From Candidatus Komeilibacteria bacterium CG11_big_fil_rev_8_21_14_0_20_36_20 (GTDB lineage: Bacteria > Patescibacteriota > Patescibacteriia > UBA1558 > GWA2-36-10), in the NCBI GenBank assembly GCA_002787405.1, contig PCWQ01000007.1, forward strand, positions 31,296 to 95,295: a stretch of DNA of 64,000 nucleotides, in the 5' to 3' direction. Within the stretch, counting starts at the first letter, position 1, and each line of letters opens with the position of its first letter. Made by a program: the position numbers and the translations under genes. This document shows, piece by piece, positions 8,094-55,734 of the stretch. The notes under the pieces are model-generated. The model was given only the letters and a program-made list of their open reading frames with translations, ran no database searches and was not told where the DNA came from.

Positions 8094-9407
8094 TTAAGAC
8101 AATCTCTCGAAACTAGAATGCACCACTGGCCCTTCTAATAAATCATAAAGTTTATGTGATACAACCGCTTGCTCTAATAAATTACAAACCTTTTCTGCTG
8201 CCTTCACATATAATTTGGCATAATCTTCTGTGAGGCTATAACTAACATATATAGTAGCCGAAGCCAAAACGCCTCTTTTAAGCATTTCTTGAGTAAATAA
8301 GGTACGAATAGCTTGACTATCTTTACCATAATCAAAAAAAAGATGAATCAATGGCGGTAATCCACTAATCTTAAGTTTCAAACCGCTATTTTCAGCTGAT
8401 GTCTTTAATCCTTTTATTATTAAGCGTCCAATTTTATCAAGCTGTTTAGGGACATCTTTGTCTATCATCTTCTTAATGGTCGTTATAGCCGCCATTGGGC
8501 CAACCCTCTCTGTCCAATAAGAACTGCTAATAAATGAAGTTTGAGCCGCTTGCATAACATTCCTATTGCCAATAATAGCCGCCATTGGGAAACCATTGCT
8601 CATTCCCTTAGCAAAAACAGCTATGTCAGGATTTACGTCGTATTTTAGATGAGCACCCCCAACATTAAGACGCCAAGCAATGGTTACTTCATCAAAAATG
8701 AGAACCGCTCCAATTTTATCAGCCAGATTTCTTATTTTTTTTAAAAAATCATCCTCTGGCTCATCATTCCTTAAAGGCTCCATAACAATTGCGCCAATAT
8801 CATTGTTTTTTAAAACAATATCCTCTAACTCCTTTATTTTATTATAGTGAAAAGGGATCGCTGTGCCAGCCAGCCCTCTTGGCACGCCCCTTGGCTCTAA
8901 TCCTGCTAATAAATGCCCATCCAGATGTTTATCGTTAAATAAATTAGCAGCTAAATACCAATCATGCCAACCATGATAGCCACAAAAAGCAATCTTATCT
9001 TTCCCTGAATATGCCCGAGCGATTCTGACAGCTACTGCCATTGCTTCTCCGCCACCTCTGGTATATCTAACCATCTCGGCCCAAGGATGCAATTTACATA
9101 GCAACTTCGCCAATTCTACATCTTCAGGAGAATTGAGTGTACAGATAGAACCTGATCTAATTACTTTTTCTACTGCTTCATTGACATCTGGATCGGCATA
9201 ACCCAATATACAAGCACCGACGCTAGCATAAGTATCAATATATTCATTGCCATCTAAATCCCAAACTTTAACGCCTTCCGCTTTTTTAAAATAAGAAGGC
9301 CAATGTTCTGGCAAAAACATCTCTGAACGTTTTGATAGTAATTGTGTTCCACCTGGAATAATTTTCTTTGCTTCGTTCCATAATAGAACACCTTTTGTTG
9401 ACTTCAT
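8094..9407 (-). CDS. class III aminotransferase (glutamate-1-semialdehyde aminomutase-like)
   Basis: 437 aa. The N-terminus (IIPGGTQLLSKR...KAEGVKVWDLDGNEYIDTYASVGACILGY) matches HemL-type PLP-dependent enzymes. Confidence 0.8.
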   Translation of the reverse strand: MKSTKGVLLWNEAKKIIPGGTQLLSKRSEMFLPEHWPSYFKKAEGVKVWDLDGNEYIDTYASVGACILGYADPDVNEAVEKVIRSGSICTLNSPEDVELAKLLCKLHPWAEMVRYTRGGGEAMAVAVRIARAYSGKDKIAFCGYHGWHDWYLAANLFNDKHLDGHLLAGLEPRGVPRGLAGTAIPFHYNKIKELEDIVLKNNDIGAIVMEPLRNDEPEDDFLKKIRNLADKIGAVLIFDEVTIAWRLNVGGAHLKYDVNPDIAVFAKGMSNGFPMAAIIGNRNVMQAAQTSFISSSYWTERVGPMAAITTIKKMIDKDVPKQLDKIGRLIIKGLKTSAENSGLKLKISGLPPLIHLFFDYGKDSQAIRTLFTQEMLKRGVLASATIYVSYSLTEDYAKLYVKAAEKVCNLLEQAVVSHKLYDLLEGPVVHSSFERLS

Positions 9408-10254
9408 AGCTGTTTGTTTTAAGTATAAAATAATTTTCTAAAAATAAAGCATCTAGCTCAGTATTGTTAAAAAGATTTAATGCCTGCTCAGGATTCTCCA
9501 CAATAGGTTCTCCCCTACCATTCATTGATGTATTCATAACAAGAGGGATCCCTGTAATTTTGTAAAATTCTTTTATTAAATTGTAATATGATTCATTAAC
9601 ATCTTTTTTTACAACTTGTGGTCGCGTTGAATTATCAACATGTAAAGCCGCCGGAATTTTATCTTGCATATTATTTTGTATATATCTAGCAATAATCATA
9701 AAATCGGCACAATTGGGAATATAGCCCTGGAGATATTTATGTTTATATTCATCTAAAATTGATACAGCAAGTGGCCGCCACTGTTCTCTATATTTTATTG
9801 TATTCATTCTTTCTTTGTTTTTCTTTTTTGTTGGGTTTGATAAGATACTTCTGTTCCCTAAAGCTCTTGCACCAGCTTCCATTTTGCCATTAAACCAACC
9901 AATAACTTTATCCTCAGCGATTAACTTTGCTGCTTGCTTATATGGTTCTTTAAGATATTCAAATCTTAGACCCTTAGATTTTAGCATTTTTTCTATATAA
10001 CTATTACTATATTTAGTGCCATAATATAGATGGCGCATCTCTTCAAAATCATTCCTCCCAGTTTTTTCAACATATTTCAACATTGCTGAACCAATCATAC
10101 TACCATTATCTCCAGCTAAAGGCTGGATAAAAATATCTTGAATCAACCCTGACTCTAAGATTTTACTATTCATAACGCAGTTCATCGCCACGCCACCAGC
10201 TAGACATAAATTATTACTTTTAAATTTCCTTTTCCCTATTTTTATTAGAATCAA
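9286..10254 (-). CDS. carbamoyltransferase (NodU/CmcH family), C-terminal part of a gene split by a frameshift
   Basis: Contains NLCLAGGVAMNCVMN, typical of O-carbamoyltransferases. Reading on in the +1 frame from the upstream ORF across the T8 run at 10323..10330 gives an uninterrupted sequence. Confidence 0.75.
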   Translation of the reverse strand: MILIKIGKRKFKSNNLCLAGGVAMNCVMNSKILESGLIQDIFIQPLAGDNGSMIGSAMLKYVEKTGRNDFEEMRHLYYGTKYSNSYIEKMLKSKGLRFEYLKEPYKQAAKLIAEDKVIGWFNGKMEAGARALGNRSILSNPTKKKNKERMNTIKYREQWRPLAVSILDEYKHKYLQGYIPNCADFMIIARYIQNNMQDKIPAALHVDNSTRPQVVKKDVNESYYNLIKEFYKITGIPLVMNTSMNGRGEPIVENPEQALNLFNNTELDALFLENYFILKTNSYEVNKRCSIMERSKENYSRWNTITIKTFRDVFARTLAFLF

Positions 10255-10268
10255 TAATACTTCTTCAA

Positions 10269-11090
10269 CTAAATCCTGGACCGCATAAGCAAGATCAACA
10301 TATTTCTTATCAAAATTTTCTCTTTTTTTTCTTCTAAAATATCAATTGCAAATGTAGCTTTAATATAATTGAATCTATCTTTCCAAGACGATGCTAATTT
10401 CTTGTGTCTTATTTGATAACCACTTCTTCTAAGTTTCATTATTTTTTTATCAAATAACTTTTTTATTTTTTTATCATAATTTCCATAAGCAGATAGTCCC
10501 ATAGTTTGACCTTCACCACTTATTGGTTTAAAACCTAGGAATCCTGTTATATCGGTATATATTTCTCCAATCGAATTAGGCCAATCAAATACTTTAATTT
10601 CTTTGAGCTTACCCTCCACTCCTTTAAAAATAACGGAAGATTCTTTTTCGCCAGCTCCATCTACTGTAATAACCAATGATTCATCAAACCCACTCAAATA
10701 GTAAGCTGATGCGGCGTGTGATAAGTGATGATTATAAAATGTAATTGGTGGCATTTTTAAATTACCAAATTTTAATTTAAGTTGATCATATATAATATCT
10801 TTTGCCTCTAATATCACCTCGCTATGTTTTAATCCTTTTTGTTTTACAAAAGGCCATTGTGTGGGTTCAAAAGGAATGGTGATATAATCTATATCAGATA
10901 AAGTTAAATTATTCATATTAAGTGTTATACTAATAGCATTAATAGGAAATTGTCCTTCTGCGTGCTTAACCCTAGTAAATCTTTCCTCTTCTAAAATTGA
11001 TATAATTTTGTTATCTTCCAATAAAATTACCGCCCCATCGTGAGTTCCAAAATAAGGTGGTATGCTTGGTTTAAAAGATAAAATTTTCAT
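10269..11090 (-). CDS. carbamoyltransferase (NodU/CmcH family), N-terminal part of a gene split by a frameshift
   Basis: The N-terminus reads MKILSFKPSIPPYFGTHDGAVILLEDNKIISILEEERFTRVKH, as in the carbamoyltransferase N-terminal domain. With 9286..10254 the total is about 595 aa, a normal size for the family. Confidence 0.75.
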   Translation of the reverse strand: MKILSFKPSIPPYFGTHDGAVILLEDNKIISILEEERFTRVKHAEGQFPINAISITLNMNNLTLSDIDYITIPFEPTQWPFVKQKGLKHSEVILEAKDIIYDQLKLKFGNLKMPPITFYNHHLSHAASAYYLSGFDESLVITVDGAGEKESSVIFKGVEGKLKEIKVFDWPNSIGEIYTDITGFLGFKPISGEGQTMGLSAYGNYDKKIKKLFDKKIMKLRRSGYQIRHKKLASSWKDRFNYIKATFAIDILEEKKEKILIRNMLILLMRSRI

Positions 11091-22325: not shown

Positions 22326-23438
22326 CTAATTAAGATCTCCCCAATATATTGCTTCTCTGGCTTTAATATCATTCTTAGCTCTGCGTCCAACTATAGTATC
22401 CTTATGTTTTGGAAGAATACCTACCGCTGGTCTTAATTCAATAATATCATCATCTTTAATAACTTCGCCTTTATTAATGTCTTTCTTGGCGTGCAATGAA
22501 CGACGTTGAACAATTACCGTTTCTGCTTCTTCTTCAACCACATCTTTCACGGTACTGCCAAGGGCTTTCTCTAATAATCTTATTTGCTCAACCATTTTTT
22601 TGAATTTTTGTGCTTCCATTGAATGAGGATGATCTGGTCCATTGTCTTTATTGCTCAAAGTAAAATGTTTTTCAATCACCCTTGCTCCTAAGGCGACTGC
22701 TCCTAAAACCACTAAACTGCCAGGGGAATGATCAGAATAACCAGTCATAACATCAAAAGTGTTTTGATACGTTTTTAATACATTAATATTAGCACTCTCA
22801 ACTTTTGATGGATAATTAGTAATGCACTGCAAAAGCACTAAATCATTATTGCCTGTTGATTTGATAATTTTAACCGCCTCATCTATTTCAGCGAGGGTGC
22901 TATCTCCAGTTGACAGCATTATTGGTTTATTTTTCTTAGCAATGTATTTTAATATTTCATGCCAAGTGATATCTCCTGAACCAATCTTAAAAAAATCAAC
23001 TCCTAACTCATCCAAAAGATCTACAGCTGCAAAATCATAAGGAGCAGAAGTAAACAAGACACCTATTTGCTGACAATAATCAAAAAGTTCTCTATGCCAT
23101 TCTCTTGGAAATTCAGCTTCCTTAAAAACTTCATCAATAGGCTTATCCCATGTTCCATGCACTCCCTTTAACTTCATTTTGGAAAAACTTGGCCCAGAAA
23201 CAATCGTATCAGCCGAAAAAGTCTGAAACTTTACTACATCAGCACCAGATTTTTTAGCAGCCAAGGCTAACTTTTTAGCTTTTTCTAAACTACCATCAAA
23301 ATTTGCTCCAATATCAGCTATAATTAAGGTAGAGTGACCTTCACCAATAAATTTATGAGCAATGGGAATATTTTTAGAAAATTTACTCATACACTTTACT
23401 TTAATAATAATTTCTTTAAATCTTTTGCTGTCATCCAC
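22326..23438 (-). CDS. nonulosonic acid synthase (NeuB/PseI/LegI family, with C-terminal SAF domain)
   Basis: LIIADIGANFDGSLEKAKKLALAAKKSGADVVKFQTF is typical of NeuB-family aldolases. 370 aa. Confidence 0.85.
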   Translation of the reverse strand: MDDSKRFKEIIIKVKCMSKFSKNIPIAHKFIGEGHSTLIIADIGANFDGSLEKAKKLALAAKKSGADVVKFQTFSADTIVSGPSFSKMKLKGVHGTWDKPIDEVFKEAEFPREWHRELFDYCQQIGVLFTSAPYDFAAVDLLDELGVDFFKIGSGDITWHEILKYIAKKNKPIMLSTGDSTLAEIDEAVKIIKSTGNNDLVLLQCITNYPSKVESANINVLKTYQNTFDVMTGYSDHSPGSLVVLGAVALGARVIEKHFTLSNKDNGPDHPHSMEAQKFKKMVEQIRLLEKALGSTVKDVVEEEAETVIVQRRSLHAKKDINKGEVIKDDDIIELRPAVGILPKHKDTIVGRRAKNDIKAREAIYWGDLN

Positions 23439-32894: not shown

Positions 32895-34742
32895 TCACAT
32901 CTTATACTTTTTATACCAAATCTGAAAATTAATCAAAGACCAAACAGTGTTCAAGGCATATTCCTTTTGGCTAATATGATTATCCAAAATTACTTTTATT
33001 GCCTCAAAATTAAACAATTCTTTTGTTTCTGGATTATAATCCGGTGATAAAACCTCATAGGCCATATTTTTCATGCCCGTCCTTAACCACTTGGCGGTTG
33101 GCGCAAAAAATCCTCTCTTCTTCTGATTATACACAAAATCAGGAATATATTCTTTCAAAGCTTGTTTGAAAATTAATTTACCTTGTTCGGCACTATTTAT
33201 TTTATATTTACTGGCAATCTTCATAGATAATTCAACTACCTCTTTATCTAAAATAGGCACTCTTTGTTCCACTCCCCAAGCCATACTCATTTTATCTGAT
33301 TGAGCTAAAGACTCGTCAATCAGCCAAGTGTCTATATCTGCTTTCATTAATTTTTTCAAAAAATCATCTGGTTTACCTTTGAAATTATGATCAGCAATAT
33401 ATTCTTTATTGGCTGTTAAATTACTAACTTGAGGATTAAGAAACCGGCTAACCATTTTTTCTTTTTGAGCTCGCCAAGACCAAAAGACATCAAGTGGCGC
33501 AGTTAAATTCAGTTTATTATAATTCTTTTGTTTGCCTGATAAAGCAAAAATTTTTTCAATTAAACCATTCTGGCGCAGAACTTTTGGCATCCTCTGCCAG
33601 CGACGAATTAAATTATAATAATAATAACGATCATAACCACCAAATAATTCATCACCTCCATCACCACCAAGCACAACCTTGATGCCCTCTTGTTTAGTAA
33701 ACTTAGATAAAAGAAAAATTGAAATTTGGGTAGGGTTGGCTACCAAATCATCCATATGCCAAATGACCTCCTCTAAATTATCCAAAACATCCTGCGACTT
33801 AATAATCAGCTCATGATGCTCCGTCTGATAATGTTTAGCCGTCTGACGGGCCAAAAGATAATCACTATTAAATTTATCCTGTTCCACGTCTATATCAAAG
33901 CCAACGGAAAAGGTCTGAATTGGCTGATCAGTAAATTCCGACATCAAACCCAAAACTACTGTTGAGTCAATGCCACCTGATAAAAACATGCCAACCGGCA
34001 CATCGGCAATCATTTGTCGTTTAACTGCGGCTTTTAGCGTCTCTCTAATTTTATCAATTGACTCCTCTCTATTAAAACTATCTTCGTAATCCTCTATTTG
34101 CCAATATTTTTGAATATTAATTTTATTATTTTTTAAGACTAAATAACTAGCCGGTGGTAATTTATAAATATTCTGCCAAATTGTTTCCGGACCATTAATA
34201 TACAAAAACCTGAAATATAAATTTAGGGCATTAATATTGAGATCTCTTTTAACATCATGTTTTAAAACCGCTTTAATCTCTGAGGAAAAAATAAATTTGG
34301 AACCGTCAAAATAATAGAAAACTGGCTTAACTCCTAAATGATCGCGAGCAATAAACAACTCTTGTTTCTGGTTATCCAAAATAGCTAGAGCAAAAATGCC
34401 ACTAAATTTATTTACACAATCATAGCCCCATTTTCTATAGGCAGCGAGAATAACTTCCGTGTCGCTCTGCGTCTTAAACGGATAAATATCCTTTAATTCT
34501 TTTTTTAATTCACGATAATTATAGATTTCTCCATTAAAAACAATCCCCTGTTTTTTATCAAAACTAAACATTGGTTGGTTTGCTTCTTTTGATAAATCAA
34601 TAATGCTCAAACGATTATGCCCTAAAGAAATATCACTACTAGTAAAAACCCCGGCATCGTCCGGGCCACGATATGAGATTATTTCATTCATATCTAGAAT
34701 TAAGGCCTCATCTTTATAATTAAAACCGTTAATAGAGCACAT
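32895..34742 (-). CDS. asparagine synthetase-like glutamine amidotransferase (AsnB/WbpS-like)
   Basis: The N-terminus MCSINGF provides a Cys2 nucleophile. The PP-loop SGGIDS is present. 615 aa. Confidence 0.85.
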   Translation of the reverse strand: MCSINGFNYKDEALILDMNEIISYRGPDDAGVFTSSDISLGHNRLSIIDLSKEANQPMFSFDKKQGIVFNGEIYNYRELKKELKDIYPFKTQSDTEVILAAYRKWGYDCVNKFSGIFALAILDNQKQELFIARDHLGVKPVFYYFDGSKFIFSSEIKAVLKHDVKRDLNINALNLYFRFLYINGPETIWQNIYKLPPASYLVLKNNKINIQKYWQIEDYEDSFNREESIDKIRETLKAAVKRQMIADVPVGMFLSGGIDSTVVLGLMSEFTDQPIQTFSVGFDIDVEQDKFNSDYLLARQTAKHYQTEHHELIIKSQDVLDNLEEVIWHMDDLVANPTQISIFLLSKFTKQEGIKVVLGGDGGDELFGGYDRYYYYNLIRRWQRMPKVLRQNGLIEKIFALSGKQKNYNKLNLTAPLDVFWSWRAQKEKMVSRFLNPQVSNLTANKEYIADHNFKGKPDDFLKKLMKADIDTWLIDESLAQSDKMSMAWGVEQRVPILDKEVVELSMKIASKYKINSAEQGKLIFKQALKEYIPDFVYNQKKRGFFAPTAKWLRTGMKNMAYEVLSPDYNPETKELFNFEAIKVILDNHISQKEYALNTVWSLINFQIWYKKYKM

Positions 34743-34743
34743 T

Positions 34744-35553
34744 TTACAAAGAATTATACAATTTACTAATTATTTTTTGTGCATCTTCATCTACATTTAG
34801 ATATTTAGTTACAACTATTCGTAAAAATCTGATAGCTACCAAAGTGATATAAATAATAAAAAACCATTTTAAGAAATGACTACTATTAAAGAAATCAACA
34901 ACGTAAACCAGTAAAAACATAAATATCATTAAATCATTTCTAGCGATGATAGTTGAAAATTTAAGAATCTTTAATAGCTTTAATAATGCTCTATTAGCTG
35001 GTGTGATTTTCCTTTCCTGATTATGATATTGCCTAACCCATTCTATCTTCTTGAAAAACAACATAAAATAGATAAAAGTTGAGCTGATAGTATTAAAAAT
35101 AATTAAAACTACAACTAAAAGAGTTAAAAATAGATAAATATTGTCTTGATAAGTAAAAAATAATTTTAGTCCCAGACCAGTTAAAATACTCGGCATAAAA
35201 ACAAAATGGTAAACTTGTTCTAATAATCCCCCCCTTAAGGTGTCTCTTTTTAGATAACGAGCTAATTCCCCATCAACCTTATCCAAAAGAATACTCAGAA
35301 TAATTAAAATGAAAGCTAAAATATTTATACGAAAACTATGGTGGCGCAGCGTTAGGCCTCCAAGTATTATTAATATAATATTCAAGACGGAAATAAAATT
35401 AGGGTTTATTTTTTTATTAGTAATTAACAAAAAAAATTTTGTAATGTAAATAGAAATATCACGATATAATAAATATCCTGCCATACTAAACTTGGGTGGT
35501 TTATTTCTTTTACTAGCTTGGCAAATTTCTTTTAACTCTTTAATTGATTCCAT
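34744..35553 (-). CDS. polytopic membrane protein with a degenerate CDP-alcohol phosphatidyltransferase-like motif
   Basis: LDKVDGELARYLKRDTLRGGLLEQVYH matches D-x2-DG-x2-AR-x8-G-x3-(D>E)-x3-(D>H). Confidence 0.4.
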   Translation of the reverse strand: MESIKELKEICQASKRNKPPKFSMAGYLLYRDISIYITKFFLLITNKKINPNFISVLNIILIILGGLTLRHHSFRINILAFILIILSILLDKVDGELARYLKRDTLRGGLLEQVYHFVFMPSILTGLGLKLFFTYQDNIYLFLTLLVVVLIIFNTISSTFIYFMLFFKKIEWVRQYHNQERKITPANRALLKLLKILKFSTIIARNDLMIFMFLLVYVVDFFNSSHFLKWFFIIYITLVAIRFLRIVVTKYLNVDEDAQKIISKLYNSL

Positions 35554-36875
35554 TACTTTGTATATCTAAAATTAATTATAGGTGTTAAACTAAAAATTTT
35601 CTTCAAAATATTATTTTTCTCCAAAGCGGTCCAGACATATTCAGCTGCTTGACTCTGCTTTAAACTAACTGATTCTTTGTGCCGGAAAATTGAAAAATTA
35701 ATCTCATTCTTTAAAGCTATTTTTCTAACCTGATGATTAGTGTATTGATTTTTATTTTGCAATTCAGTAGTTGAAAAATTACTAGTGGCTTTTCCATAAC
35801 CATGGTCAGACAATTTTAATATCTCATTATTAGGTATTCCTCGGCCAACATAACTTTTCAAATTATATAACCCTGACAAAACCACCGGCTGATCATCCTT
35901 GACTAAATTAGCATTATTGGCATAAAGAAAATAAATACTGTCTTCTTTTTTTATTTCTTTGACAAAATCATGAGTGTGATCCGAAAAATAATTTAGATCA
36001 GTAATTTGATTCAAAACATCCTGCAACAACATAAAAGTAGTCAAACGAGTAGCCAAACCGTAATTTATCAAAACCTTAAGCGTATCTCTAAAAATATTAT
36101 AATATTTATTACCTTGATTAAGGCCGATAAATTCTGACCGATAAACTATTTTATTTAAAATTTCTGAATTAAGCACAGAGCTTGGGCCCCCTTGACCCAT
36201 ATGATAAAGAATAAAAATCTGCCCTTCTTTAACTCCCCATTTGCTGGCCTGTTCTTGGTCAAAAATCTCGTCAGCAACTTGAACTTCAATAAAATGATTA
36301 CCTTGCAGAAAACTCCCAATATTATTCCTTAAATATTGATGGCCATTTTTCCAATCATCATTAAAATAATCAAAAATATCTTTATTGATATTTGCTACTT
36401 GGGGAGAATCTACATTAAATATATTATCAACTGATTGTTTAAATTTACTCTGCAAATATGCCGGCCCTTGCAGACACACTTCATAAAACTCCTTCCGACT
36501 TAAAGAATATTTATTAGGCAAAGGACGTCTTAATTTAGAAAATATTCCTTTAATAAGGCCTTTATTAAAATTTAATAAAGCTTTTTCCAGCTTATCTATG
36601 GTCTCGGTGCTATAACTCAGTTCTGTTTTGATTAAAGACTTTCCGCAATTAATATTAACGGCGCTTAATTGGGGATACAAAATATCTCTACTTAGCGAAC
36701 CAAAACTGGATGGGATATATCCTTTGTACCCCATTCTGGCTCCTTCTTTTTTTAAATGTATATCAGGCAAAACTAAGAGCTCTTCTACGCCAGGCAAACT
36801 CGCTATCTCCTGAATTCTTTGCAAAAGTTTTGTTGATAATTTTTCCTTATCAATGGTAAATTTTATATTTGCCAT
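35553..36875 (-). CDS. divergent RtcB-family protein (RNA 3'-phosphate ligase fold) embedded in the glycan operon
   Basis: RtcB motifs were found in order: LPGVEELLVLPDIH (PDxH), AVNINCGKS (the D/N-I-N-C-G metal site), GNHFIEVQ, and HMGQGG in place of HSGSRG. Confidence 0.6.
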   Translation of the reverse strand: MANIKFTIDKEKLSTKLLQRIQEIASLPGVEELLVLPDIHLKKEGARMGYKGYIPSSFGSLSRDILYPQLSAVNINCGKSLIKTELSYSTETIDKLEKALLNFNKGLIKGIFSKLRRPLPNKYSLSRKEFYEVCLQGPAYLQSKFKQSVDNIFNVDSPQVANINKDIFDYFNDDWKNGHQYLRNNIGSFLQGNHFIEVQVADEIFDQEQASKWGVKEGQIFILYHMGQGGPSSVLNSEILNKIVYRSEFIGLNQGNKYYNIFRDTLKVLINYGLATRLTTFMLLQDVLNQITDLNYFSDHTHDFVKEIKKEDSIYFLYANNANLVKDDQPVVLSGLYNLKSYVGRGIPNNEILKLSDHGYGKATSNFSTTELQNKNQYTNHQVRKIALKNEINFSIFRHKESVSLKQSQAAEYVWTALEKNNILKKIFSLTPIINFRYTK

Positions 36876-36880
36876 AAATC

Positions 36881-37954
36881 TTACTTTTTATATAAATCTA
36901 CAATTTCTTTAGATAATACTTCCAAATTTTGATGATGCTGAATATATTGACTTAAAGACAGTAATAACCCCCCTGAACTTTCATTGATAGCTTTGATCAC
37001 TTTATCCGCCATATCTTTATGGTCGTATATATATAATGAAGGATGCAGAGAGTTTAAAATATCTTCAAAAGCAACATTAGAAGATATTACTAAAGTTCCG
37101 CAACTCATTGCTTCTAGAACATTTTTATCTAAACTGCCGGTCTTGCTAAAATTTAAGAAAATATCTGCCTCCTGATAGAACTTAGGGGTATTAACATTGG
37201 AAACCGAGCCGACAAATTCCACACTGTCCTCTAGATTAAAACTCTTCACGTTTTTCTTTAATTCCTCCAGATAAATTTTATCCCCAGCCAAACTTGGCGC
37301 GCCCACAATTTTTAATAAAACTGGCTTGGACAATTTTTGCCTTAACTCACGAACTAAGTCAATCATCAATTGAATATTTTTAGTTGGTGAAATCCGACTG
37401 ACGGATAATAAAATTAATTTTTCTTTATTAATTGTCTCTTTAAAATAAAAAATGTCACTATCAATACCATGATGCATGACGATTAATTTTTTGCTCGGCA
37501 AACGGAAACTTTCTTTAGATGCTGTAACCATTACATCCGAAAGCATATTTAATAGCCGCAGCTTCCAGTTAACGCCCTTGTGTGTATACCAAGCTATTAA
37601 TTTTTTTCTAAAAATTTTAGCCCAAGGGGCAATCAAAATGCCATACTCCGGATTTTGATGGGCAAAAACGCCATCCACTTTTGGCAATAATCTGACTGCT
37701 AACCGCTGAAACTGCCAAAACTCTTGCCAACGATTTTTACCTTTTTCCTTACCTAAAGAATAAACTCTAATATTATCCGGCAAGCCGCTATCATTGCCTT
37801 TTTCCAAACAAATAACGTAAAGTTTATCCAAGTTAGCGGCTATTTTTTTAATCCAATTATAAGTAAAACCGGCCAAACCGTCATCTTGATCTACTCTTCT
37901 AGTAATCATTAATAATTTCATCTTGGTAATTTTTGCTCTATAATATCTTCCCAA
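36881..37954 (-). CDS. family 4 glycosyltransferase
   Basis: The GT4 C-terminal domain reads NVLEAMSCGTLVISSNV. Confidence 0.8.
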   Translation of the reverse strand: MGRYYRAKITKMKLLMITRRVDQDDGLAGFTYNWIKKIAANLDKLYVICLEKGNDSGLPDNIRVYSLGKEKGKNRWQEFWQFQRLAVRLLPKVDGVFAHQNPEYGILIAPWAKIFRKKLIAWYTHKGVNWKLRLLNMLSDVMVTASKESFRLPSKKLIVMHHGIDSDIFYFKETINKEKLILLSVSRISPTKNIQLMIDLVRELRQKLSKPVLLKIVGAPSLAGDKIYLEELKKNVKSFNLEDSVEFVGSVSNVNTPKFYQEADIFLNFSKTGSLDKNVLEAMSCGTLVISSNVAFEDILNSLHPSLYIYDHKDMADKVIKAINESSGGLLLSLSQYIQHHQNLEVLSKEIVDLYKK

Positions 37955-39057
37955 AATTTAACAATCTGTTCTGTATTATCACTAAATTTTTCCCTCATTA
38001 ACTGACGCCCGTTTTCTCCTAGGCGCTCTGCTTCGGTTGGAGAATTTAATAAATATAAAATTTTATCAGCCATAGCTTGAGCGTCTCCGATCGGCACCAG
38101 CCAGCCGTTATAACCATCTCGCACTATTTCTTTGGCTCCGGTGGTGGCGGTTGCCACAACCGGCTTGCCACAGGCGTTGGCCTCCACTAATACTTTGCCG
38201 AAACTTTCAGAATCTGATGACAAAACAAACAAATCACAATTTCTATATTCTTTCGGTAAATCATCATGATCTTTGGCTCCTAATAATTCTATATAATCTA
38301 AACCAGCTGTTAATTTTTTTATTTTATCTTTTTCAGGCCCCGCACCAGCAATACGAAGTATGATATCCTTTCTTTTCTTATAAACAATCTCTATTGCTTT
38401 TATTAACAAAGGAATATTTTTAACTATTACCAATCGTCCTACCGAAAGAATAATTTTTTTATCTCTACTTTGTTTCTTTTCTACAGGTAAAGAAAACTTC
38501 TGTAAATCAACGGGCGTGGGGATTACTCGAATTTTATTTTCTCTAAGGCCAAAATTAATTAGCTTATCCTTAATGCCTTGACTCATTACCCGAATAGCGT
38601 CCGCTTGCCTAACGACCTTCTGGCCTAAAATCAATAACAAGCGATTATACCAATCTTCTCTCAGCCATAGTTTGTTGTCAAAAAAATCTCCGTGAAAATG
38701 GATTAACAACTGACAATTAAATTTTTTCTTCACCAAAGTGCCAACCAATCCTGTCAAAAAAGGATCCTGCGTCAAAACTAAATCAATTTTATTTTGTAAA
38801 CAAATATTCTTAGCAATCTTCCAGGCATCCCACAAAAAATTTATCTGATTAGCCGAATTAGTCGGATAAACAAAAACATTATGAGATAATTTTTTATTTT
38901 TTAAATTTAAACTTTTCTTAGCATAAGTAATAGAATGAATACTGTTAACATATTTACCATATTCTATATTGCGAATCTGCGCATCACCAAAATCCGGCTG
39001 ATTCATTGCCAAAGTCGGATCCCAGGAAACAGTCAAAATGTTAATTGCTCTAGCCAT
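37918..39057 (-). CDS. family 4 glycosyltransferase
   Basis: The GT4 motif reads FGKVLVEANACGKPVVATATTGAKEIV. Confidence 0.8.
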   Translation of the reverse strand: MARAINILTVSWDPTLAMNQPDFGDAQIRNIEYGKYVNSIHSITYAKKSLNLKNKKLSHNVFVYPTNSANQINFLWDAWKIAKNICLQNKIDLVLTQDPFLTGLVGTLVKKKFNCQLLIHFHGDFFDNKLWLREDWYNRLLLILGQKVVRQADAIRVMSQGIKDKLINFGLRENKIRVIPTPVDLQKFSLPVEKKQSRDKKIILSVGRLVIVKNIPLLIKAIEIVYKKRKDIILRIAGAGPEKDKIKKLTAGLDYIELLGAKDHDDLPKEYRNCDLFVLSSDSESFGKVLVEANACGKPVVATATTGAKEIVRDGYNGWLVPIGDAQAMADKILYLLNSPTEAERLGENGRQLMREKFSDNTEQIVKFWEDIIEQKLPR

Positions 39058-40493
39058 TATGTTTTTCTAATAAGATTATAAATTTTTCTTAAAGCTTTAC
39101 CTAAAACGCCTTTCTGCTCAATGGCGATGCCTGATAAATATTCCACAGCGTAAATATCAAGGGCTAAGCCAAAAAAACGATGACGGATCCTCCACTCAAA
39201 CCAGCTGATCACTGGACCTAATCTCCAATTTAAAAATTTAAAATATTCCCGAATGCGCCAGACCTTTTTAACGTCAGTCCAAGGCGATTCAAAATTCTTG
39301 CGAAAACGATCTATTTTGCCCCAATCCTCGGTTCTGGTTGGCGGCTGAAAACCGCTTTCTATGGCAAAATCATACATTTTTGAACCAGGATAAGGCAAAT
39401 AAGCCCCAAGGGTAAAAACGGCCTGCGGATGAATTTTATAGATTTGATACAATAAATCAATAGTTGACTCAAACTCTTCTTCGGTCTCTGTCGGCAGTCC
39501 AACAATCACCGAATAGCTGGCCGGCAAATCGTATTTTTTTAAGATTTTCACTGCTTCAATTATTTTGTCTGTCGTGAATTTTTTGTCTATTAACTTCAAT
39601 AAACGGTTACTGCCAGATTCAACGCCAATAAGCATATCAAACACCCGATACTCTTTTAATTTCGCCGCTACCTCATCATTAATGGAATCAATCCTAATCT
39701 CCAGATGGGAAGGCAGATTAATGCGTTCTAATATTTCCAGAGCCCGATACTTATTAACAAAAAAATTATCATCATAAAATTTAATGGCGTCAATATTGTA
39801 TTTTTCTTTTAAAAAGTTAATATCCTCAACCACCGCATCAATAGACCAAGTGCGCCATTTATTTTTATTAAAGGCATTATTATAACAAAAAGCACAATTA
39901 AAAGGACAACCGCGGGAACTTTTATAAGCAATCGCCCTTTTATACTTTCCTAAAGGGAAAATAAATTTAGACATGTCAATTAAAGAAAAATCTAAACGGT
40001 ATTGATCAAGATTTTCTATAAAAGGCCGCCAAGGATTAATCACCGGCTGATTATTCTTTTTATAACCAACGCCCAACACTCCTTCCATTTCTTTCTGATC
40101 TACAATCCGCTGGGTAAACTCAACCACACTGATTTCACCCTCGGAAATAATAACATAATCAATATAATCTTCCTGCAGACATTGTTCTGGTAAAAGTGAA
40201 GGATGGATACCGCCCCACAAAACAGGAATGGAACTTTTGGCTTTAATCCTTTGTGATAACTCGGCGCTGTGTTGAGTTTGGATACCGGTCATGATCGACA
40301 AACCAAAATATAACGGCTTTTCTTTAACAATATAATCAGCCGTGTCATTAATTTCTTTTTCAGTAATATTAATCAACTCTACCGTAAAACCTGCTTCTTT
40401 TAGAGCACTGCCCACGCATAAAATCCCCATTGGCAGAATCTTCTCTGAATGATCTTGACTATAATTAATTTGCGCTAAAATAATCTTAGGCAT
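39057..40493 (-). CDS. cobalamin-binding radical SAM enzyme
   Basis: A B12-binding-like N-terminal domain is followed by CPFNCAFCY. Confidence 0.8.
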   Translation of the reverse strand: MPKIILAQINYSQDHSEKILPMGILCVGSALKEAGFTVELINITEKEINDTADYIVKEKPLYFGLSIMTGIQTQHSAELSQRIKAKSSIPVLWGGIHPSLLPEQCLQEDYIDYVIISEGEISVVEFTQRIVDQKEMEGVLGVGYKKNNQPVINPWRPFIENLDQYRLDFSLIDMSKFIFPLGKYKRAIAYKSSRGCPFNCAFCYNNAFNKNKWRTWSIDAVVEDINFLKEKYNIDAIKFYDDNFFVNKYRALEILERINLPSHLEIRIDSINDEVAAKLKEYRVFDMLIGVESGSNRLLKLIDKKFTTDKIIEAVKILKKYDLPASYSVIVGLPTETEEEFESTIDLLYQIYKIHPQAVFTLGAYLPYPGSKMYDFAIESGFQPPTRTEDWGKIDRFRKNFESPWTDVKKVWRIREYFKFLNWRLGPVISWFEWRIRHRFFGLALDIYAVEYLSGIAIEQKGVLGKALRKIYNLIRKT

Positions 40494-40498
40494 ATTCT

Positions 40499-41941
40499 CT
40501 ACTTGGTGACAAATTTCTTAGCTAGTTTAAATTCTAATGGAAAAGCAAAAAACTTTAATTTCCATCTCAACTTGCATAAGAGCACAAAAACTAATTTAAT
40601 CAATTTTTGCGCCTTAATGCTGGAGCCCATCGCGCTACTGATACTATGCGCGCCAAATCTAACATAGGCCTCCATTGATTCCACAAAATCTTTATGCTTG
40701 ACCCAAGGAAAATTTTGGACAGTTAAATAACTTAATTCATTTTCTACTAAGTGCGCCCATGCTTCTGAGTTTTGTGGAGCTTTCCAGCCAGCGGCCAAAC
40801 ATTCCTGATATAATTCTGATCCAGGATATGGCCGAAAAGCTTGTGGGCCTAAAATCTGCACTTTATTATCTAATTTAATCAACTTGTCAATCAAATCCAA
40901 GGTCATTCTCATATCTTTTTTGGATTCACCGGGCAAACCAATCATAAAAGAATATTGCGGGATAATATCATATTTTAAACACATCTTAGCTGAATGTAAA
41001 ATTTCCGCCGGTGTAATATCTTTTTTAATTTTTTTTAAGATAATCGGACTACCTGACTCCGCGCCAAAAGATAATAAATAACAACCTGACCTTTTCAGTT
41101 TTGCCATTAACTGATCATCAATCCTTCCTTCTCTAATATAATTAGCCCTGACTGTTGTTTCCCAAGGAATAGTTAATCCTTTTGCAATCATACCTTCGAT
41201 AATTTTCTTTGATCTTTCAATATCCACAAAAAAATTTTCGTCCCAAAAACGCAATCTCTTACCTTTAAAATAATCTTTCTCCTTAATTATTTTGATATCT
41301 TCCAAAACCTGCCCCACTGTGCGATATCTCCACCTATTCTTCAAAATGGCATTAATACAAAAAGTACATCTGTGTGGACATCCTCTCGAAGTTAAAGAAG
41401 GAATGATATCTAATTTATACAAAATACTCTTAGGCATTAGATCCCATTTAAATAAAGGCATCTTGGCCGGATCATGTAATTCCTGAGGCGGATTAATAAC
41501 AATGCTGCTATCTTTATAGGCAATGCCTTGAATTTTATTTAAATCCTTATGACTGGCGATCTCATACAAAGTATGTTCTCCCTCACCCACACAAACAATA
41601 TCCACTAAGGGATGGTCAATGGTCTGCTCAACAAAAAATGTTGGGTGCGAGCCCCCCCAAATAATCGTGCAGTCTGGCTTAATATCCTTAATAAATTTAC
41701 TAACTTCCAAAGCATTGGAAATTTGAGTGGTCATCACGGAAATGCCAGCATAATCACAGTCAACAATCTTTTCTTTTATTAAATCAAAATAATTCTTTTC
41801 ACGAGCACCATCAACAATCTCCACCGGCATGTCTTTACTATTCAAATAACTAGCTAAACTTAACAAGCCAACCGAAATTGAGCTGTCATAATTTTCTTTG
41901 GCAATATTAAAAGGTGGATTGATTAATAAAACTTTACTCAT
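40499..41941 (-). CDS. cobalamin-binding radical SAM enzyme
   Basis: A B12-binding-like N-terminal domain is followed by CPHRCTFCINA. Confidence 0.8.
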   Translation of the reverse strand: MSKVLLINPPFNIAKENYDSSISVGLLSLASYLNSKDMPVEIVDGAREKNYFDLIKEKIVDCDYAGISVMTTQISNALEVSKFIKDIKPDCTIIWGGSHPTFFVEQTIDHPLVDIVCVGEGEHTLYEIASHKDLNKIQGIAYKDSSIVINPPQELHDPAKMPLFKWDLMPKSILYKLDIIPSLTSRGCPHRCTFCINAILKNRWRYRTVGQVLEDIKIIKEKDYFKGKRLRFWDENFFVDIERSKKIIEGMIAKGLTIPWETTVRANYIREGRIDDQLMAKLKRSGCYLLSFGAESGSPIILKKIKKDITPAEILHSAKMCLKYDIIPQYSFMIGLPGESKKDMRMTLDLIDKLIKLDNKVQILGPQAFRPYPGSELYQECLAAGWKAPQNSEAWAHLVENELSYLTVQNFPWVKHKDFVESMEAYVRFGAHSISSAMGSSIKAQKLIKLVFVLLCKLRWKLKFFAFPLEFKLAKKFVTK

Positions 41942-45142: not shown

Positions 45143-46342
45143 ATGCCTAATCTTAGCAAAAAAGATAAATTAAAAAACCAAAAAATCCTCTTCTTAATCA
45201 CCCAAACTAAGTGGGGTGGAGCCCAGAAGTATGTTTTAGAATTGGCTGAATACTTTAGCCAAAACAATGAAATTCACCTGACCTATGGAGAAACTGATAA
45301 TATTAACCAGCAGTTTCTAAATTATTGTAAAGAATTAAAAATCAAAACCATACCAATCCCCACTTTACACAGGAAAATAAATTTTACCAAAGATTTCCTA
45401 GCCATAGTCGATACGCTCAAAATTTTGAATAAAGAAAATTATAATTTAATTCACCTCAATAGTTCTAAAGCTAGTTTTGTCGGCAGCGTGGCTGCTAAAA
45501 TGTACAGCTATAACCCAGCCAACACAAAAACGCGGGTTGTTTACACGGCTCATGGCTTTGTCTTCAATGAACCATTGTCTAAAATAAGAAAAAAGGCATA
45601 TATCTTTTCAGAAAAAATAGCGGCTGCTTTTCAATATTTAATCATTGCTGTTTCTGAAACCGACCGGCAAAGTGCTATTGACCAGCAAATATGTAATCCT
45701 AATAAAATTTTCACCGTGCACAACGGCTTGAATTTTGATAAATATAATTTTTATAGTAAAGAAGAAGCCAGAAATAAATTAAATTTATCAGCAGATAAAA
45801 AATATTTTGGCACGATTGCCAGCTTTTATGAAACTAAGGGCTATGAATATTTAGTAGAAGCCATTAAAATACTGCGAAATAAACAGTCTCAAATCTTAAA
45901 AAATTATCAGTGGGTCTTAATTGGTGAAGGACCAAATCTAGAAAAAATAAAAAAACAAGTCGCAGACAATAATTTGTCTCCCTACATTAAATTTATTCCT
46001 GCTCAAGATAATGACTGGAAATTTTTAAAAGCTTTTGACTGTTTTATTTTGCCTTCAATCAAAGAAGGCCTGCCTTATACTATTCTGGAAGCTGGCTTAG
46101 CTCAAATTCCGATCATTGCCACCAAAGTTGGCGGTCTTCCTGAAATCATTACCAATGAAAAAACCGGCTTATTGATAACGCCGGCTAATCCTCTCTCTTT
46201 AGCGCAAGCTATGGAAAAAATGTCTCAAGATCATGATCTCTCTGAAAAATTTGCAGAAAGCAACTATCAAAATATTAAAAATAATTTTAATCTCCAAAAT
46301 ACTTTAGATAAGACTGAAGAACTATATTTAAAATTATTTTAA
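45143..46342 (+). CDS. family 4 glycosyltransferase
   Basis: EGLPYTILEAGLAQIPIIATKVGGLPEII. This is the only plus-strand gene in the right half of the cluster, divergent from 43926..45068. Confidence 0.8.
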   Translation: MPNLSKKDKLKNQKILFLITQTKWGGAQKYVLELAEYFSQNNEIHLTYGETDNINQQFLNYCKELKIKTIPIPTLHRKINFTKDFLAIVDTLKILNKENYNLIHLNSSKASFVGSVAAKMYSYNPANTKTRVVYTAHGFVFNEPLSKIRKKAYIFSEKIAAAFQYLIIAVSETDRQSAIDQQICNPNKIFTVHNGLNFDKYNFYSKEEARNKLNLSADKKYFGTIASFYETKGYEYLVEAIKILRNKQSQILKNYQWVLIGEGPNLEKIKKQVADNNLSPYIKFIPAQDNDWKFLKAFDCFILPSIKEGLPYTILEAGLAQIPIIATKVGGLPEIITNEKTGLLITPANPLSLAQAMEKMSQDHDLSEKFAESNYQNIKNNFNLQNTLDKTEELYLKLF

Positions 46343-46908
46343 CCTTCGAGGTCGATTTCAACTAATCTTCTGATATAAACATCTAAATTCTTAGTATACT
46401 CTTGAAAGTCAACTAGATAATCCTGGTTGACTAATTTAAATTTTGCTCGATGAATATAATCATAATGGGAGCTGTAGAGCCAATCATTAATATTCTTTGT
46501 TAACTTATGTTTAAGCGGATTTAGATTAATATAACTAATGACAGTCTCAAGATAATTATCATCTTCGACAAGTTTAGACTTAAATGAACCCGCAAAAATT
46601 CTCCCTGAATGCTCTTTATGTATATTAAAATATTTACTATAAGAATTAGATAAAAGTGAAATAAAACGAGATATAGCTGATGATTCGACCTTCGAGGTCA
46701 AATCCGGCTCTTGCAATAGAAAATGCCAATGGTTGGGCATTACGCAATAAGCTAGAATTTTAACATGCGTTTTTTCTTTATAAAATAAAGCTTTTTCAAG
46801 AAAATAAGTATAATCTTGCTCCGTATAAAAAATAGTCCTTTTTTCCACCGCACGATTATAAATATGGTGGATAGTATTGGGGAAAAAATTTCTTGGTTTA
46901 TTAGGCAT
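46339..46908 (-). CDS. IS200/IS605-family Y1 (HUH) transposase-like protein, probably a REP-associated tyrosine transposase (RAYT)
   Basis: The HUH motif reads CVMPNHWHFLLQ. A C-terminal WLYSSHYDY (W-x-SS...Y) is present. 189 aa. The gene is flanked by palindromic repeats. Confidence 0.75.
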   Translation of the reverse strand: MPNKPRNFFPNTIHHIYNRAVEKRTIFYTEQDYTYFLEKALFYKEKTHVKILAYCVMPNHWHFLLQEPDLTSKVESSAISRFISLLSNSYSKYFNIHKEHSGRIFAGSFKSKLVEDDNYLETVISYINLNPLKHKLTKNINDWLYSSHYDYIHRAKFKLVNQDYLVDFQEYTKNLDVYIRRLVEIDLEG

Positions 46909-53100: not shown

Positions 53101-53994
53101 ACCTCTTTGAACAACCATTGTGTCAATGGTTACTCCTTCGCTACCGGTGGTTAATTTAAGTTTGGTGAAAGGATATCTAGCGGCACCTTCAACTACAATG
53201 CCGGAAGCTGGCGTATCGCTAGCCAATGACACTGTTAGGTCGCCACCAGAAACTGGTCCACCGCCTTCACCCGGCATATAACCTGCCAGTTCTGTTTCTT
53301 CACCGGTGATTGATTCGCCGGTTGAATAACCATCTACGTTAGCCACGTCAATAACATAGTCATAACTAAAGTTATTGGCTTCAAAGGCATCAGAAGTAGC
53401 AAATGGTCGGACTGTATCGCCTTCACCGACATAATACAAATCCTCGCCCACCTGCAGCAATGTACCTTCTGGATACATAGTGCTTAAATCAGAACCAGTG
53501 GTATAGCTGGATGAAAAATAACCTGGGATAACATCTAGAACTCTAGATCCCCAATCGGCACCATACAAATCTTCAGCCACGTCTCCTGTAGGAATCCAGT
53601 GGAGTGTTCCACCCGGACCAACAGCATAAATTTTGGCTGTATTCATATGGGTAACCAATTTGGTTCCCGGTCGATAAGTCACGGCGCCGCCGTCTGCATA
53701 CAAATCCAGTTCAGCTACGTTAACTCTGACCACATTGTCAAAGTTATCATACCAAGTATTATATGTTTTTCCATCTGGGAAAACATATTTCATACCATCT
53801 GAACCAATGTAATAAACAGCTGCACCAGATTGACCTTCTAAGGCAAGCAAAGAGCCTGCTCCGTAATTACCAGCGGCTTTGGCTACTGGCGCAAAAGATA
53901 CGCCAACTGACCAAAGGGCAGTGGTAATCACCAAAGAAAATACAGCAAATTTCTTTAATAAGTGCATGTTTCTTTTTTTTAAAAAAGTCCCCAA
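50191..53994 (-). CDS. large secreted Thr/Ser/Gly/Ala/Val-rich surface protein (S-layer or adhesin-like, repeated beta-sandwich-like modules)
   Basis: 1267 aa. The signal-peptide-like N-terminus reads MGTFLKKRNMHLLKKFAVFSLVITTALWSVGVSFAPVAKAAG. Two related modules of about 90 aa are followed by more than 1000 aa of low-complexity T/S/G-rich repeats. GC content is about 45% against about 30% elsewhere. Confidence 0.7.
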   Translation of the reverse strand: MGTFLKKRNMHLLKKFAVFSLVITTALWSVGVSFAPVAKAAGNYGAGSLLALEGQSGAAVYYIGSDGMKYVFPDGKTYNTWYDNFDNVVRVNVAELDLYADGGAVTYRPGTKLVTHMNTAKIYAVGPGGTLHWIPTGDVAEDLYGADWGSRVLDVIPGYFSSSYTTGSDLSTMYPEGTLLQVGEDLYYVGEGDTVRPFATSDAFEANNFSYDYVIDVANVDGYSTGESITGEETELAGYMPGEGGGPVSGGDLTVSLASDTPASGIVVEGAARYPFTKLKLTTGSEGVTIDTMVVQRGGIGQDAAFSTIDVLDGSTMIPFDQNSKTFNSNHQATFTKDVVIPANTTQYIYLAGNMAASLDSYAGENPALGLASITLKGSGSVIGSLPAYGNTQTLNHTITIGTATVQRGSYNNASSTTIEVGKQDYTFFAFQIQAGSVEDVTFNQVSVYQEGTASLSEDLSGYALLKDGTKIADGVVDGKYINFSIAATTIPKGQTYQYQVQADVESGSARTVDLGIYRTTDLLVKGNTYGYNITPTYSGTGSAATKPVLSANEFQIANGNMTVERGSSVGADNVTVGSDQTLGAFKFTVKGEPIDVTELTLTIVSSSGAQIEDALEGVKIVDSNGVTVAGPTDITNDALTVAFTDTFTLPVGESEYTIMGNLNISGGWATDDTIYARLATAASAITATGQVTGNSITASPAANVDTNTQTVKAANLTVTRNTLPANATVIAGAQDVLVGSWNFDGTNSGEDIRITSIVVHASSTNFTNLTIYDGVFGSGGVAKSPVNDAPADNDGYDSASSTFAFDDPIVLTKGTSKTIQLIADVNTGAVAEQVGIFGLVDVSTTANASVIAYGVTSGNRGIVTLTADMGATMTVATAGTLTISTYNNPSAAIVRAGATGVTFGNIRLEAFNENLDLDQLKVFVADGNITGTATGNYQDVSKVYLYDGSTLLGSAAIPSTGYYTFNFPNNTLTIPQDGSKTITVKADLGTISSSADNAPGTPGADVRFGLGGTDGVKTTGVDSNDVVTSETYNGSTTTGMVLHKALPTVTHSTASAPLGAATSLTNGAIDLYAFNVAADASGNEVLLYRATLTVATGGTINVTSCYLRDSDGNVVGTAADPTDLDGGDGYGGYNTYTFDNPLISHSDELEPLQISAGSSETYYYNCTIALAGTGENVSVAMLGDTASSTSSDGYGNPTTDINTNYADAWGALNQGNFVWSDNYKGRGIDTTGATATEYGQWYNGYLVSGLGAVTTSTPSYTISWSG

Positions 53995-55712: not shown

Positions 55713-55734
55713 ATATTTGAGATTATTTTATATA

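Follow-up and report, generated by a model that had tools for sequence, protein, structure and literature searches.

To our knowledge, RtcB enzymes are known only as ligases of RNA or DNA ends, with roles in tRNA splicing, in the unfolded-protein response, and in RNA or ribosome repair. The described systems closest to the gene pair reported here are the canonical RtcB proteins (P. horikoshii PH1602, E. coli RtcB, human RTCB and T. thermophilus TTHA1785), the RtcB2-PrfH ribosome-repair module (TIGR03073), in which an RtcB paralogue is locked to a dedicated partner gene, and several cytidine diphosphate (CDP)-alcohol phosphotransferases. The latter include AF2299, the PIP, AIP and PGP synthases, and the bifunctional inositol-1-phosphate cytidylyltransferase/CDP-inositol phosphotransferase (IPCT-DIPPS), whose soluble nucleotidyl-transfer module is coupled to a membrane domain. 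Here we analyzed a stretch of 64,000 nucleotides from Candidatus Komeilibacteria bacterium CG11_big_fil_rev_8_21_14_0_20_36_20 (contig PCWQ01000007.1, positions 31,296 to 95,295; hereafter the window). It carries, within a glycan gene cluster, an RtcB-like gene coupled to a gene for a membrane protein of the CDP-alcohol phosphotransferase family:

35553..36875, minus strand: RtcB-like gene, 440 amino acids, non-canonical clade, subclade S (open reading frame list, Pfam, AlphaFold and Foldseek)
34744..35553, minus strand: partner gene, encoding a multi-pass membrane protein of 269 amino acids that belongs to the CDP-alcohol phosphotransferase family; the ATG shares a base with the stop codon of the RtcB-like gene

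A divergent RtcB-fold protein with a conserved membrane partner

An earlier note on this DNA, made from the letters and a list of open reading frames (ORFs), had placed an RtcB-family gene at 35553-36875. These coordinates are exact, the gene lies on the minus strand, and its ORF is intact, with an ATG start and 440 uninterrupted codons followed by a stop. The product matches the Pfam RtcB family (PF01139) over the full length with 93.5 bits (E 2.2e-26; gathering score 27 bits), its residues 21-436 aligning with profile positions 2-424 of 426. It scored far lower than the cut-offs of the NCBIfam models NF007153 (RtcB equivalog; 93.7 against 407) and TIGR03073 (release_rtcB; partial match, 82.1 against 271.8). 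An AlphaFold (AF2) model based on 123 aligned homologues reached a mean predicted local distance difference test score (pLDDT) of 93.9 and a predicted TM-score (pTM) of 0.93; an input of 5 sequences alone gave a pLDDT of 39.5 and was discarded. Compared with the PDB by Foldseek, the model matched solely RtcB structures, namely those of TTHA1785, P. horikoshii RtcB, and human and zebrafish RTCB (E 3e-23 to 5e-19, TM-score 0.63-0.68, identity 16-18%). This search gave no convincing match outside RtcB, the next one having an E value above 0.2, and no hydrophobic segment was found in the protein. Because the Pfam match, the high-confidence model and the RtcB-only structural matches agree, the protein is a genuine, if strongly divergent, RtcB-fold protein. 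The earlier note had called it shorter and divergent. The divergence is borne out by the identity to solved RtcBs and by the NCBIfam scores; the shorter length holds only by comparison with the archaeal and human RtcBs (481-505 amino acids).

The protein belongs to a large clade and is no lone oddity; the size of this clade had escaped the earlier note. A word-indexed search gave four relatives with 40-43% identity, and an exhaustive profile search of 1.84 billion representatives yielded 1393 proteins at E <= 1e-3, 63 of them at E <= 1e-30. The non-canonical residue pattern described below was present in most of the best 150 of these 1393 matches. A quick and rough neighbour-joining distance tree separated the non-canonical clade from canonical RtcB and resolved three groups. 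Subclade S, which includes the window protein, comprises proteins of 409-444 amino acids from bacteria of the candidate phyla radiation (CPR), Saccharibacteria among them. Subclade T consists of two tandem paralogues of around 477 and 464 amino acids from Ryanbacteria and other CPR bacteria, and the sequences of subclade G stem from GC-rich metagenomes of soil and sediment.

The conserved partner of the RtcB-like gene is a membrane enzyme, a point that the earlier note had missed although it rightly described the coupling of the two genes in the window: the stop codon of the one and the ATG of the other share a single base at 35553 (AAG-TAATG-GAA). In all assessable close relatives (P0002, P0004, P0005 and P0007), the partner gene lies directly downstream of the RtcB-like gene. 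The pairing was then counted over 105 unique RtcB-like sequences from 101 sources; since these loci were found by similarity, with related populations among them, the counts are phylogenetically non-independent, and genes in GC-rich contigs were read from domain coordinates only. The partner was found with the module in 42 of the 45 assessable AT-rich (CPR-type) loci and in 21 of the 39 assessable GC-rich loci. Of these AT-rich cases, the partner lies directly downstream in 26 and 1.7 kb away in one, and the other 15 are upstream copies of a tandem pair; in every tandem pair that could be checked, the partner comes after the second copy. The pairing holds across subclades that are 22-43% identical to the window protein. 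It also holds in the reciprocal direction, an RtcB-like gene being directly upstream of four out of four independently found partner homologues (P0156, P0158, P0163 and P0166). This recalls the RtcB2-PrfH module, with its dedicated partner gene; here, however, the partner is a multi-pass membrane phosphotransferase and not a release-factor homologue, and the RtcB-like protein lacks the arginines that contact RNA. An apparent fusion of RtcB-like and partner domains (L067:1-2478) was rejected and left uncounted: a frameshift read-through, or an assembly error, is most likely, as the partner's own start Met is visible and the RtcB C-terminus is lost.

Tandem RtcB-like pairs followed by the partner were seen at L012:9965-14064 and also in L026, L051, L055, L059, L064, L071, L072, L081, L084 and L097.

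Active-site residues of the two proteins

In canonical RtcB, Cys98 (P. horikoshii numbering, used throughout) bridges both metals, His234 and His329 are ligands of metal M1, and His203 and Asp95 are ligands of metal M2 (PMC9745838). Asn202 touches the 5′-OH and the alpha-beta bridge of guanosine triphosphate (GTP), Glu206 reads guanine N1 and N2, and Lys480 contacts guanine O6 (PMC9745838). Residue correspondences were established by aligning a profile of close relatives to P. horikoshii RtcB, and clade counts were taken over the 123 aligned sequences. The motifs of the RtcB-like protein follow the order LPDIHLKK (36-43), NINCG (74-78), GNHFIEVQ (192-199), HMGQGG (225-230) and DHGYGK (357-362). 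The earlier note had recognized PDIH (37-40) and the next three in this same order, which is far beyond chance. The positions of interest are:

36756..36767, minus strand: PDIH, residues 37-40; D38 and H40 correspond to D65 and H67 of the conserved PDxH, followed by the clade-specific Lys42
36642..36656, minus strand: NINCG, residues 74-78; Cys77 corresponds to the metal-bridging Cys98, and Asn74 stands in place of the M2 ligand Asp95
36279..36302, minus strand: GNHFIEVQ, residues 192-199; N193 and H194 correspond to N202 and H203, and E197 to the guanine-reading E206
36186..36203, minus strand: HMGQGG, residues 225-230; H225 corresponds to the M1 ligand H234, and Gly229 stands in place of Arg238
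35970..35972, minus strand: His302, corresponding to the M1 ligand His329; invariant in 123/123 aligned sequences
35790..35807, minus strand: DHGYGK, residues 357-362; His358 corresponds to His404, the nucleophile that accepts guanosine monophosphate (GMP), Asp357 is clade-specific, and Lys362 stands in place of Arg408
35565..35582, minus strand: C-terminal PIINFR, residues 432-437; Pro432 is invariant, and Arg437 lies at the position of the guanine-O6 contact Lys480

The nucleophile is kept: H358 aligns with H404 (His337 of E. coli RtcB), and His is found at this position in 121 of the 123 sequences. Four of the five metal ligands are kept as well (C77, H194, H225 and H302 for C98, H203, H234 and H329), so that the M1 set Cys98, His234 and His329 is complete (Cys77, His225 and His302). 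The residue N193 preserves N202. The guanine contact E197 is a Glu in 120/123 sequences. At the second guanine contact, R437, five residues after the invariant Pro432 (123/123), Lys occupies the position in 100/123 sequences and Arg in 10/123. The earlier note had proposed to inspect a predicted structure for the metal ligands and the GTP-binding His, and had allowed that the protein might be degenerate. The model shows the RtcB fold, and by alignment Asp95 alone among the metal ligands is changed. C77, H194, H225, H302, H358, N193, E197 and R437 (the equivalent of K480) are all present, and the catalytic core shows no degeneration. Two further positions set the clade apart from canonical RtcB: a Lys two residues past the PDxH His (PDxHxK; Lys42 here, Lys in 99/123 sequences) and an Asp directly before the nucleophile His (DHGG; Asp357 here, Asp in 74/123).

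The losses are of another kind. The M2 set (Asp95, Cys98, His203) is incomplete, with N74 replacing D95 in the window protein and Gly in most of subclade S. The arginine Arg238 (Arg189 of E. coli RtcB), which binds the first two phosphodiesters of the 5′-OH strand (PMC8051266), is G229 here and G, D, I or E across the subclade. R190 and Q194, which also contact the 5′-OH strand, are Y181 and N185, and R408 is K362 here and Y, D, N, H or S in relatives. D95, S237-R238, R190, Q194 and R408 are, by contrast, invariant among the canonical RtcBs aligned alongside, which came from the tail of the same search. Replacing E. coli Arg189 by Ala makes sealing 200-fold slower, while RNAppG formation is just 3-fold slower (PMC8051266). 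The pocket that receives the beta and gamma phosphates of GTP has been argued to overlap the pocket for the terminal phosphate of the substrate (PMC3458531); altered substrate binding would therefore be expected from the change at the M2 ligand Asp95. Judged by alignment, the nucleotidyl-transfer core of the RtcB-like protein is conserved, and the residues lost are ones for which experiments on canonical RtcB have shown a role in binding the polynucleotide (Arg238, E. coli Arg189; PMC8051266).

Two subclades depart further from this pattern. In subclade G (the GC-rich loci L030, L033, L041, L048, L068 and others; for example L041:9899-11335), Cys98 is replaced by Asp, the motif reading ANDG instead of the canonical DINCG. 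Cys98 is essential in canonical RtcB, where it bridges both metals (PMC9745838), and its replacement implies a different metal centre in this subclade. In subclade T, the downstream paralogue has Pro or Gln in place of the nucleophile His and keeps Cys98, His203, His234, His329, Asn202 and Glu206; position 95 is Ala. This hints at a heteromeric enzyme that may assign activation to one RtcB fold and a subsequent metal-dependent step to another. Evidence for the sealing of pre-activated RNAppG by an RtcB that lacks its nucleophile was looked for in PMC3458531 and not found.

The membrane partner was examined in the same manner. It matches the Pfam family CDP-OH_P_transf (PF01066) with 34.1 bits against a cut-off of 22, which agrees with the assignment made in the earlier note, and it contains 5-6 hydrophobic segments. 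Its closest solved relatives are AF2299 (4o6m) and IPCT-DIPPS (4mnd), with which it shares the small size, the arrangement of about six transmembrane helices (TM) and a DGxDGEIAR-type signature. The best NCBIfam matches were partial and far under the cut-offs (AIP synthase, 36 against 180; PIP synthase, 25 against 170). Among these relatives and matches, the enzymes of known function (the DIPP, AIP and PIP synthases) all make products that bear a terminal phosphate. Two of its motifs are relevant here:

35206..35283, minus strand: signature D91-xx-D94-G-E-x-A-R99 ... G108-xxx-E112-xxx-H116, with the fourth Asp changed to His
35389..35403, minus strand: P51-N-F-I-S55 in TM1, the cytosine-binding motif P(D/N)xx(T/S), kept

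The CDP-alcohol phosphotransferase signature, D1xxD2GxxAR...GxxxD3xxxD4, comprises eight residues called absolutely conserved, the fourth Asp being the catalytic base (PMC4634129). Changing this Asp to Asn nearly abolishes activity (PMC4634129). The signature is incomplete in the partner proteins. D1, D2, G, A, R and G are present, whereas D4 is His in 25/25 unique partners, all of which fit the consensus DxxDGExAR-x8-G-xxx-[D/E]-xxx-H. The D3 position is Glu in the window copy and Asp in 24/25 partners. The cytosine-binding motif is retained, with N or D in 24/25 partners and S or T in 25/25. On these motifs the partner is a specialised subfamily of CDP-alcohol phosphotransferases, with the family signature broken at the predicted catalytic base. 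It differs from IPCT-DIPPS and AF2299 at both D4 and, in the window copy, D3. With the PIP, AIP and PGP synthases it shares the positions D1, D2 and D3, which bind metal, as well as the cytosine motif; it differs from them in its D4 His, in its far lower equivalog scores, and in arginines of TM4-6 considered below. As it retains both the signature for CDP binding and P(D/N)xx(T/S), the partner probably uses a CDP-linked donor itself and not a GDP-linked one.

Glycan gene context

The gene pair is flanked, as the earlier note had it, by GT4 and AsnB genes, and the order on the minus strand is GT4, RtcB-like gene, CDP-alcohol phosphotransferase, AsnB:

36881..37954, minus strand: GT4 glycosyltransferase, immediately upstream of the RtcB-like gene with a 5-nucleotide gap, same operon
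32895..34742, minus strand: AsnB-type glutamine amidotransferase, immediately downstream of the partner

These genes are part of a long, mostly co-directional glycan super-cluster that extends from about 2.6 to 49.3 kb of the window. It includes two Wzy_C genes, a Bac_transf initiating transferase, nine GT4 genes and one GT2 gene, RmlC/RmlD-like enzymes, NeuB and a CMP-sugar synthetase-dehydrogenase fusion, Capsule_synth, an ABC exporter, methyltransferases, carbamoyltransferase pieces, the AsnB amidotransferase, and four B12-binding radical SAM genes.

A similar context was found elsewhere. In 32 paired loci, the recurrent neighbours are GT4 (19/32) and Polysacc_synt_2/Bac_transf (10/32), followed by GT2, PMT_2, polysaccharide deacetylase, Polysacc_synt flippase and B12-radical SAM; none of them belongs to the RNA-repair families rtcA, rtcR, archease or prfH. 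The 145 neighbours in 27 CPR loci include 47 GT4 genes, 10 epimerases, 9 PMT_2, 8 GT2, 7 DegT, 6 deacetylases and 6 methyltransferases, and RNA-repair families are again absent from the 25 most frequent families. The earlier note had asked whether the closest homologues reside in an RNA-repair or in a glycan setting. They are not beside rtcA or archease, and all assessable ones are located in sugar-modification or glycosyltransferase clusters with the partner downstream. In one relative, P0042 (L100:7001-9991), a Wzx-type flippase (Polysacc_synt) and an RtcB-like domain are predicted to form a single polypeptide. Its gene is preceded by DegT, Bac_transf-dehydratase, Wzy_C and GT4 genes and followed by the His-variant CDP-alcohol phosphotransferase, a beta-helix protein and AsnB. 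This locus is a complete Wzx/Wzy cluster, and its composition is strikingly like that of the window.

Several other observations concern the same regions. The AsnB-type gene recurs beside the module in the distantly related loci L089, L093:1082-2947 and L100:12891-14846, and AsnB may be a third, facultative component of the module. The four B12-binding radical SAM genes of the window, all on the minus strand, are located at 14987-16417, 16417-18150, 39057-40493 and 40499-41941, two of them just upstream of the block formed by the GT4 and RtcB-like genes; a gene of similar kind is present near the module in L081. Methylation or some other modification of sugars is a possible role for these enzymes. 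At 18916-21084 (minus strand), near a NeuB-family synthase (22326..23438), a fusion joins a CMP-sugar-type cytidylyltransferase (CTP_transf_3) with a UDP-glucose/GDP-mannose dehydrogenase. On the minus strand, the carbamoyltransferase is divided between two ORFs, one N-terminal (10269..11090) and one C-terminal (9286..10254), of which the latter overlaps an aminotransferase ORF (8094..9407). An ORF with only the N-terminal domain of ornithine/aspartate carbamoyltransferase adjoins them (11511-11948, minus strand). These pieces could be frameshifts, pseudogenes or genuine split genes. An IS200-like Y1 transposase ORF (46339-46908, minus strand) lies in the glycan cluster between a GT4 gene of divergent orientation and a Wzy_C gene. 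Finally, an ORF of 1267 amino acids with no Pfam match (50191-53994, minus strand) is located just downstream, on that strand, of genes for an ECF sigma factor and a DUF5667 protein (54372-56286, minus strand).

Proposed chemistry and alternative readings

We consider it likely that the RtcB-like protein acts with its membrane partner in a glycan or envelope pathway and not in RNA repair. The earlier note had suggested an RtcB homologue of a glycan pathway that performs a nucleotidyl- or phospho-transfer on a substrate other than RNA, and gene context together with residue patterns points to this as the best-supported reading. More tentatively, at somewhat less than even odds, we favour a scheme in which the RtcB-like enzyme and the partner would act in sequence to form a phosphodiester on a cell-surface glycan. 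The two genes would then constitute a module of a cell-surface polysaccharide pathway, made of a soluble RtcB-fold enzyme no longer active on RNA and a His-variant CDP-alcohol phosphotransferase embedded in the membrane. His358 would, as in canonical RtcB, accept GMP from GTP at the Cys/His metal site; we infer this step from the conservation of the nucleophile and the M1 site, and of Asn202 and the guanine contacts as well. The GMP would be passed to a phosphomonoester on a small molecule or on a lipid-linked glycan intermediate, giving X-p-p-G, and a hydroxyl would attack the activated phosphate, giving the phosphodiester and releasing GMP. In the division of labour that we prefer, the partner would take an ordinary CDP-linked donor and yield a product that keeps a terminal phosphate, as do the products of the DIPP, AIP, PIP and PGP synthases. 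On the cytoplasmic side of the membrane, the RtcB-like enzyme would ligate the phosphate of this product to a hydroxyl of a lipid-linked glycan; alternatively, the polarity might be reversed.

Three observations weigh against this scheme. Conserved arginines in TM4-6 of the partner, which would bind the acceptor phosphate as in the PIP synthases, were looked for and none was found, so that the partner sequences lend the hand-off of a terminal phosphate no direct support. Roughly half of the GC-rich relatives that could be assessed lack a partner gene directly downstream; in these loci (L018, L020, L025, L029, L044 and others) the gene that follows is usually one for a large secreted beta-helix/NosD protein carrying PKD or Ig domains. 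And the loci in which the pairing was counted, having been collected by similarity, are not phylogenetically independent.

The reading that we had favoured first, and now regard as unlikely, reverses the order of the two activities. The RtcB-like enzyme would carry out no more than steps one and two of the RtcB reaction, making a GDP-alcohol (X-p-p-G) from an alcohol-phosphate and GTP, and the partner would take over step three, or its chemical equivalent, by transferring the X-phosphate to an acceptor hydroxyl, releasing GMP. The RtcB-like enzyme would then stand in for the cytidylyltransferase that normally supplies CDP-alcohol phosphotransferases, a part that falls to the IPCT domain in IPCT-DIPPS. 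X-p-p-G and a CDP-alcohol are the same kind of molecule, and the order of the RtcB-like and partner genes mirrors that of IPCT and DIPPS, a soluble nucleotidyl-transfer module preceding the membrane domain in both, although here the soluble module is a separate RtcB-fold protein and not a fused cytidylyltransferase. Moreover, Arg238 (E. coli Arg189) acts in the third, sealing step, and its absence from the clade is what would be expected if this step were delegated. No nucleotidyltransferase family was found among the recurrent neighbours in the 32 paired loci or among the 25 most frequent neighbour families of the CPR loci, and the His at the catalytic base of 25/25 partners marks a specialised subfamily. 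The nucleotide specificities, however, do not match. The partner keeps the residues of the pyrimidine pocket (GxxAR...G) together with the P(D/N)xx(T/S) motif, which forms a hydrogen bond to the amine of cytosine, while the RtcB-like protein keeps the guanine contacts, and it is because the cytosine-binding motifs are intact that this reading was downgraded. In addition, the tandem paralogue devoid of its nucleophile retains four metal ligands and the guanine Glu, which would fit better with catalysis by an RtcB fold after activation.

It is less probable still that the RtcB-like protein nucleotidylates a protein, such as the partner or a flippase, as a regulatory switch, or that it serves mainly as a structural or regulatory subunit of the membrane enzyme. 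The loss of the nucleophile (His to Pro or Gln) in one tandem paralogue points to non-covalent roles within the clade, the M2 ligand Asp95 is lost, and the tight translational coupling and the predicted flippase fusion suggest physical complexes. Against this, the nucleophile and the M1 site, together with Asn202 and the guanine contacts, are strongly conserved in the window protein and its subclade, which argues for genuine catalysis of nucleotidyl transfer. We know of no RtcB-fold enzyme that modifies proteins.

A housekeeping or repair RNA ligase that lies by chance in a polysaccharide operon is very improbable: the Pfam RtcB threshold is exceeded and the nucleophile and most metal ligands are kept, but the pairing with the partner is conserved, reciprocally too, over subclades of 22-43% identity, the polynucleotide contacts are lost, the 25 most frequent neighbour families include no RNA-repair genes, one relative is predicted to be fused to a flippase, and the protein reaches only 94 bits against the NCBIfam equivalog cut-off of 407. 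The remaining probability falls to some reading not yet imagined.

For the clade as a whole, we give about even weight to the view that a widespread and hitherto unrecognised group of RtcB-fold enzymes was recruited from RNA ligation to envelope chemistry, where the pair would use GTP and a covalent His-GMP intermediate to activate a phosphomonoester and to form phosphodiesters in surface glycans or in glycolipids. In the open-access and bioRxiv literature, a body of work outside which most subscription journals lie, we found no paper that connects RtcB-like proteins with CDP-alcohol phosphotransferases or with glycan clusters; both the pair of enzymes and the chemistry proposed for it may be new. 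The pair would also be of use for annotating the many genes of candidate-phyla and soil bacteria that are at present misnamed 'RNA ligase RtcB'. The His found in place of Asp in a CDP-alcohol phosphotransferase signature called "absolutely conserved" should be of interest in its own right to membrane enzymologists. If the proposal is true, the nucleotidyl-transfer chemistry of RtcB would extend to glycans or lipids, and surface glycans would have a new route to phosphodiesters, independent of the known CDP-alcohol, TagF and LicD logic. Two RtcB paralogues may, in some lineages, have divided activation and sealing between them. For the CPR bacteria, the pair would offer a testable handle on a surface-glycan chemistry that is almost unknown.

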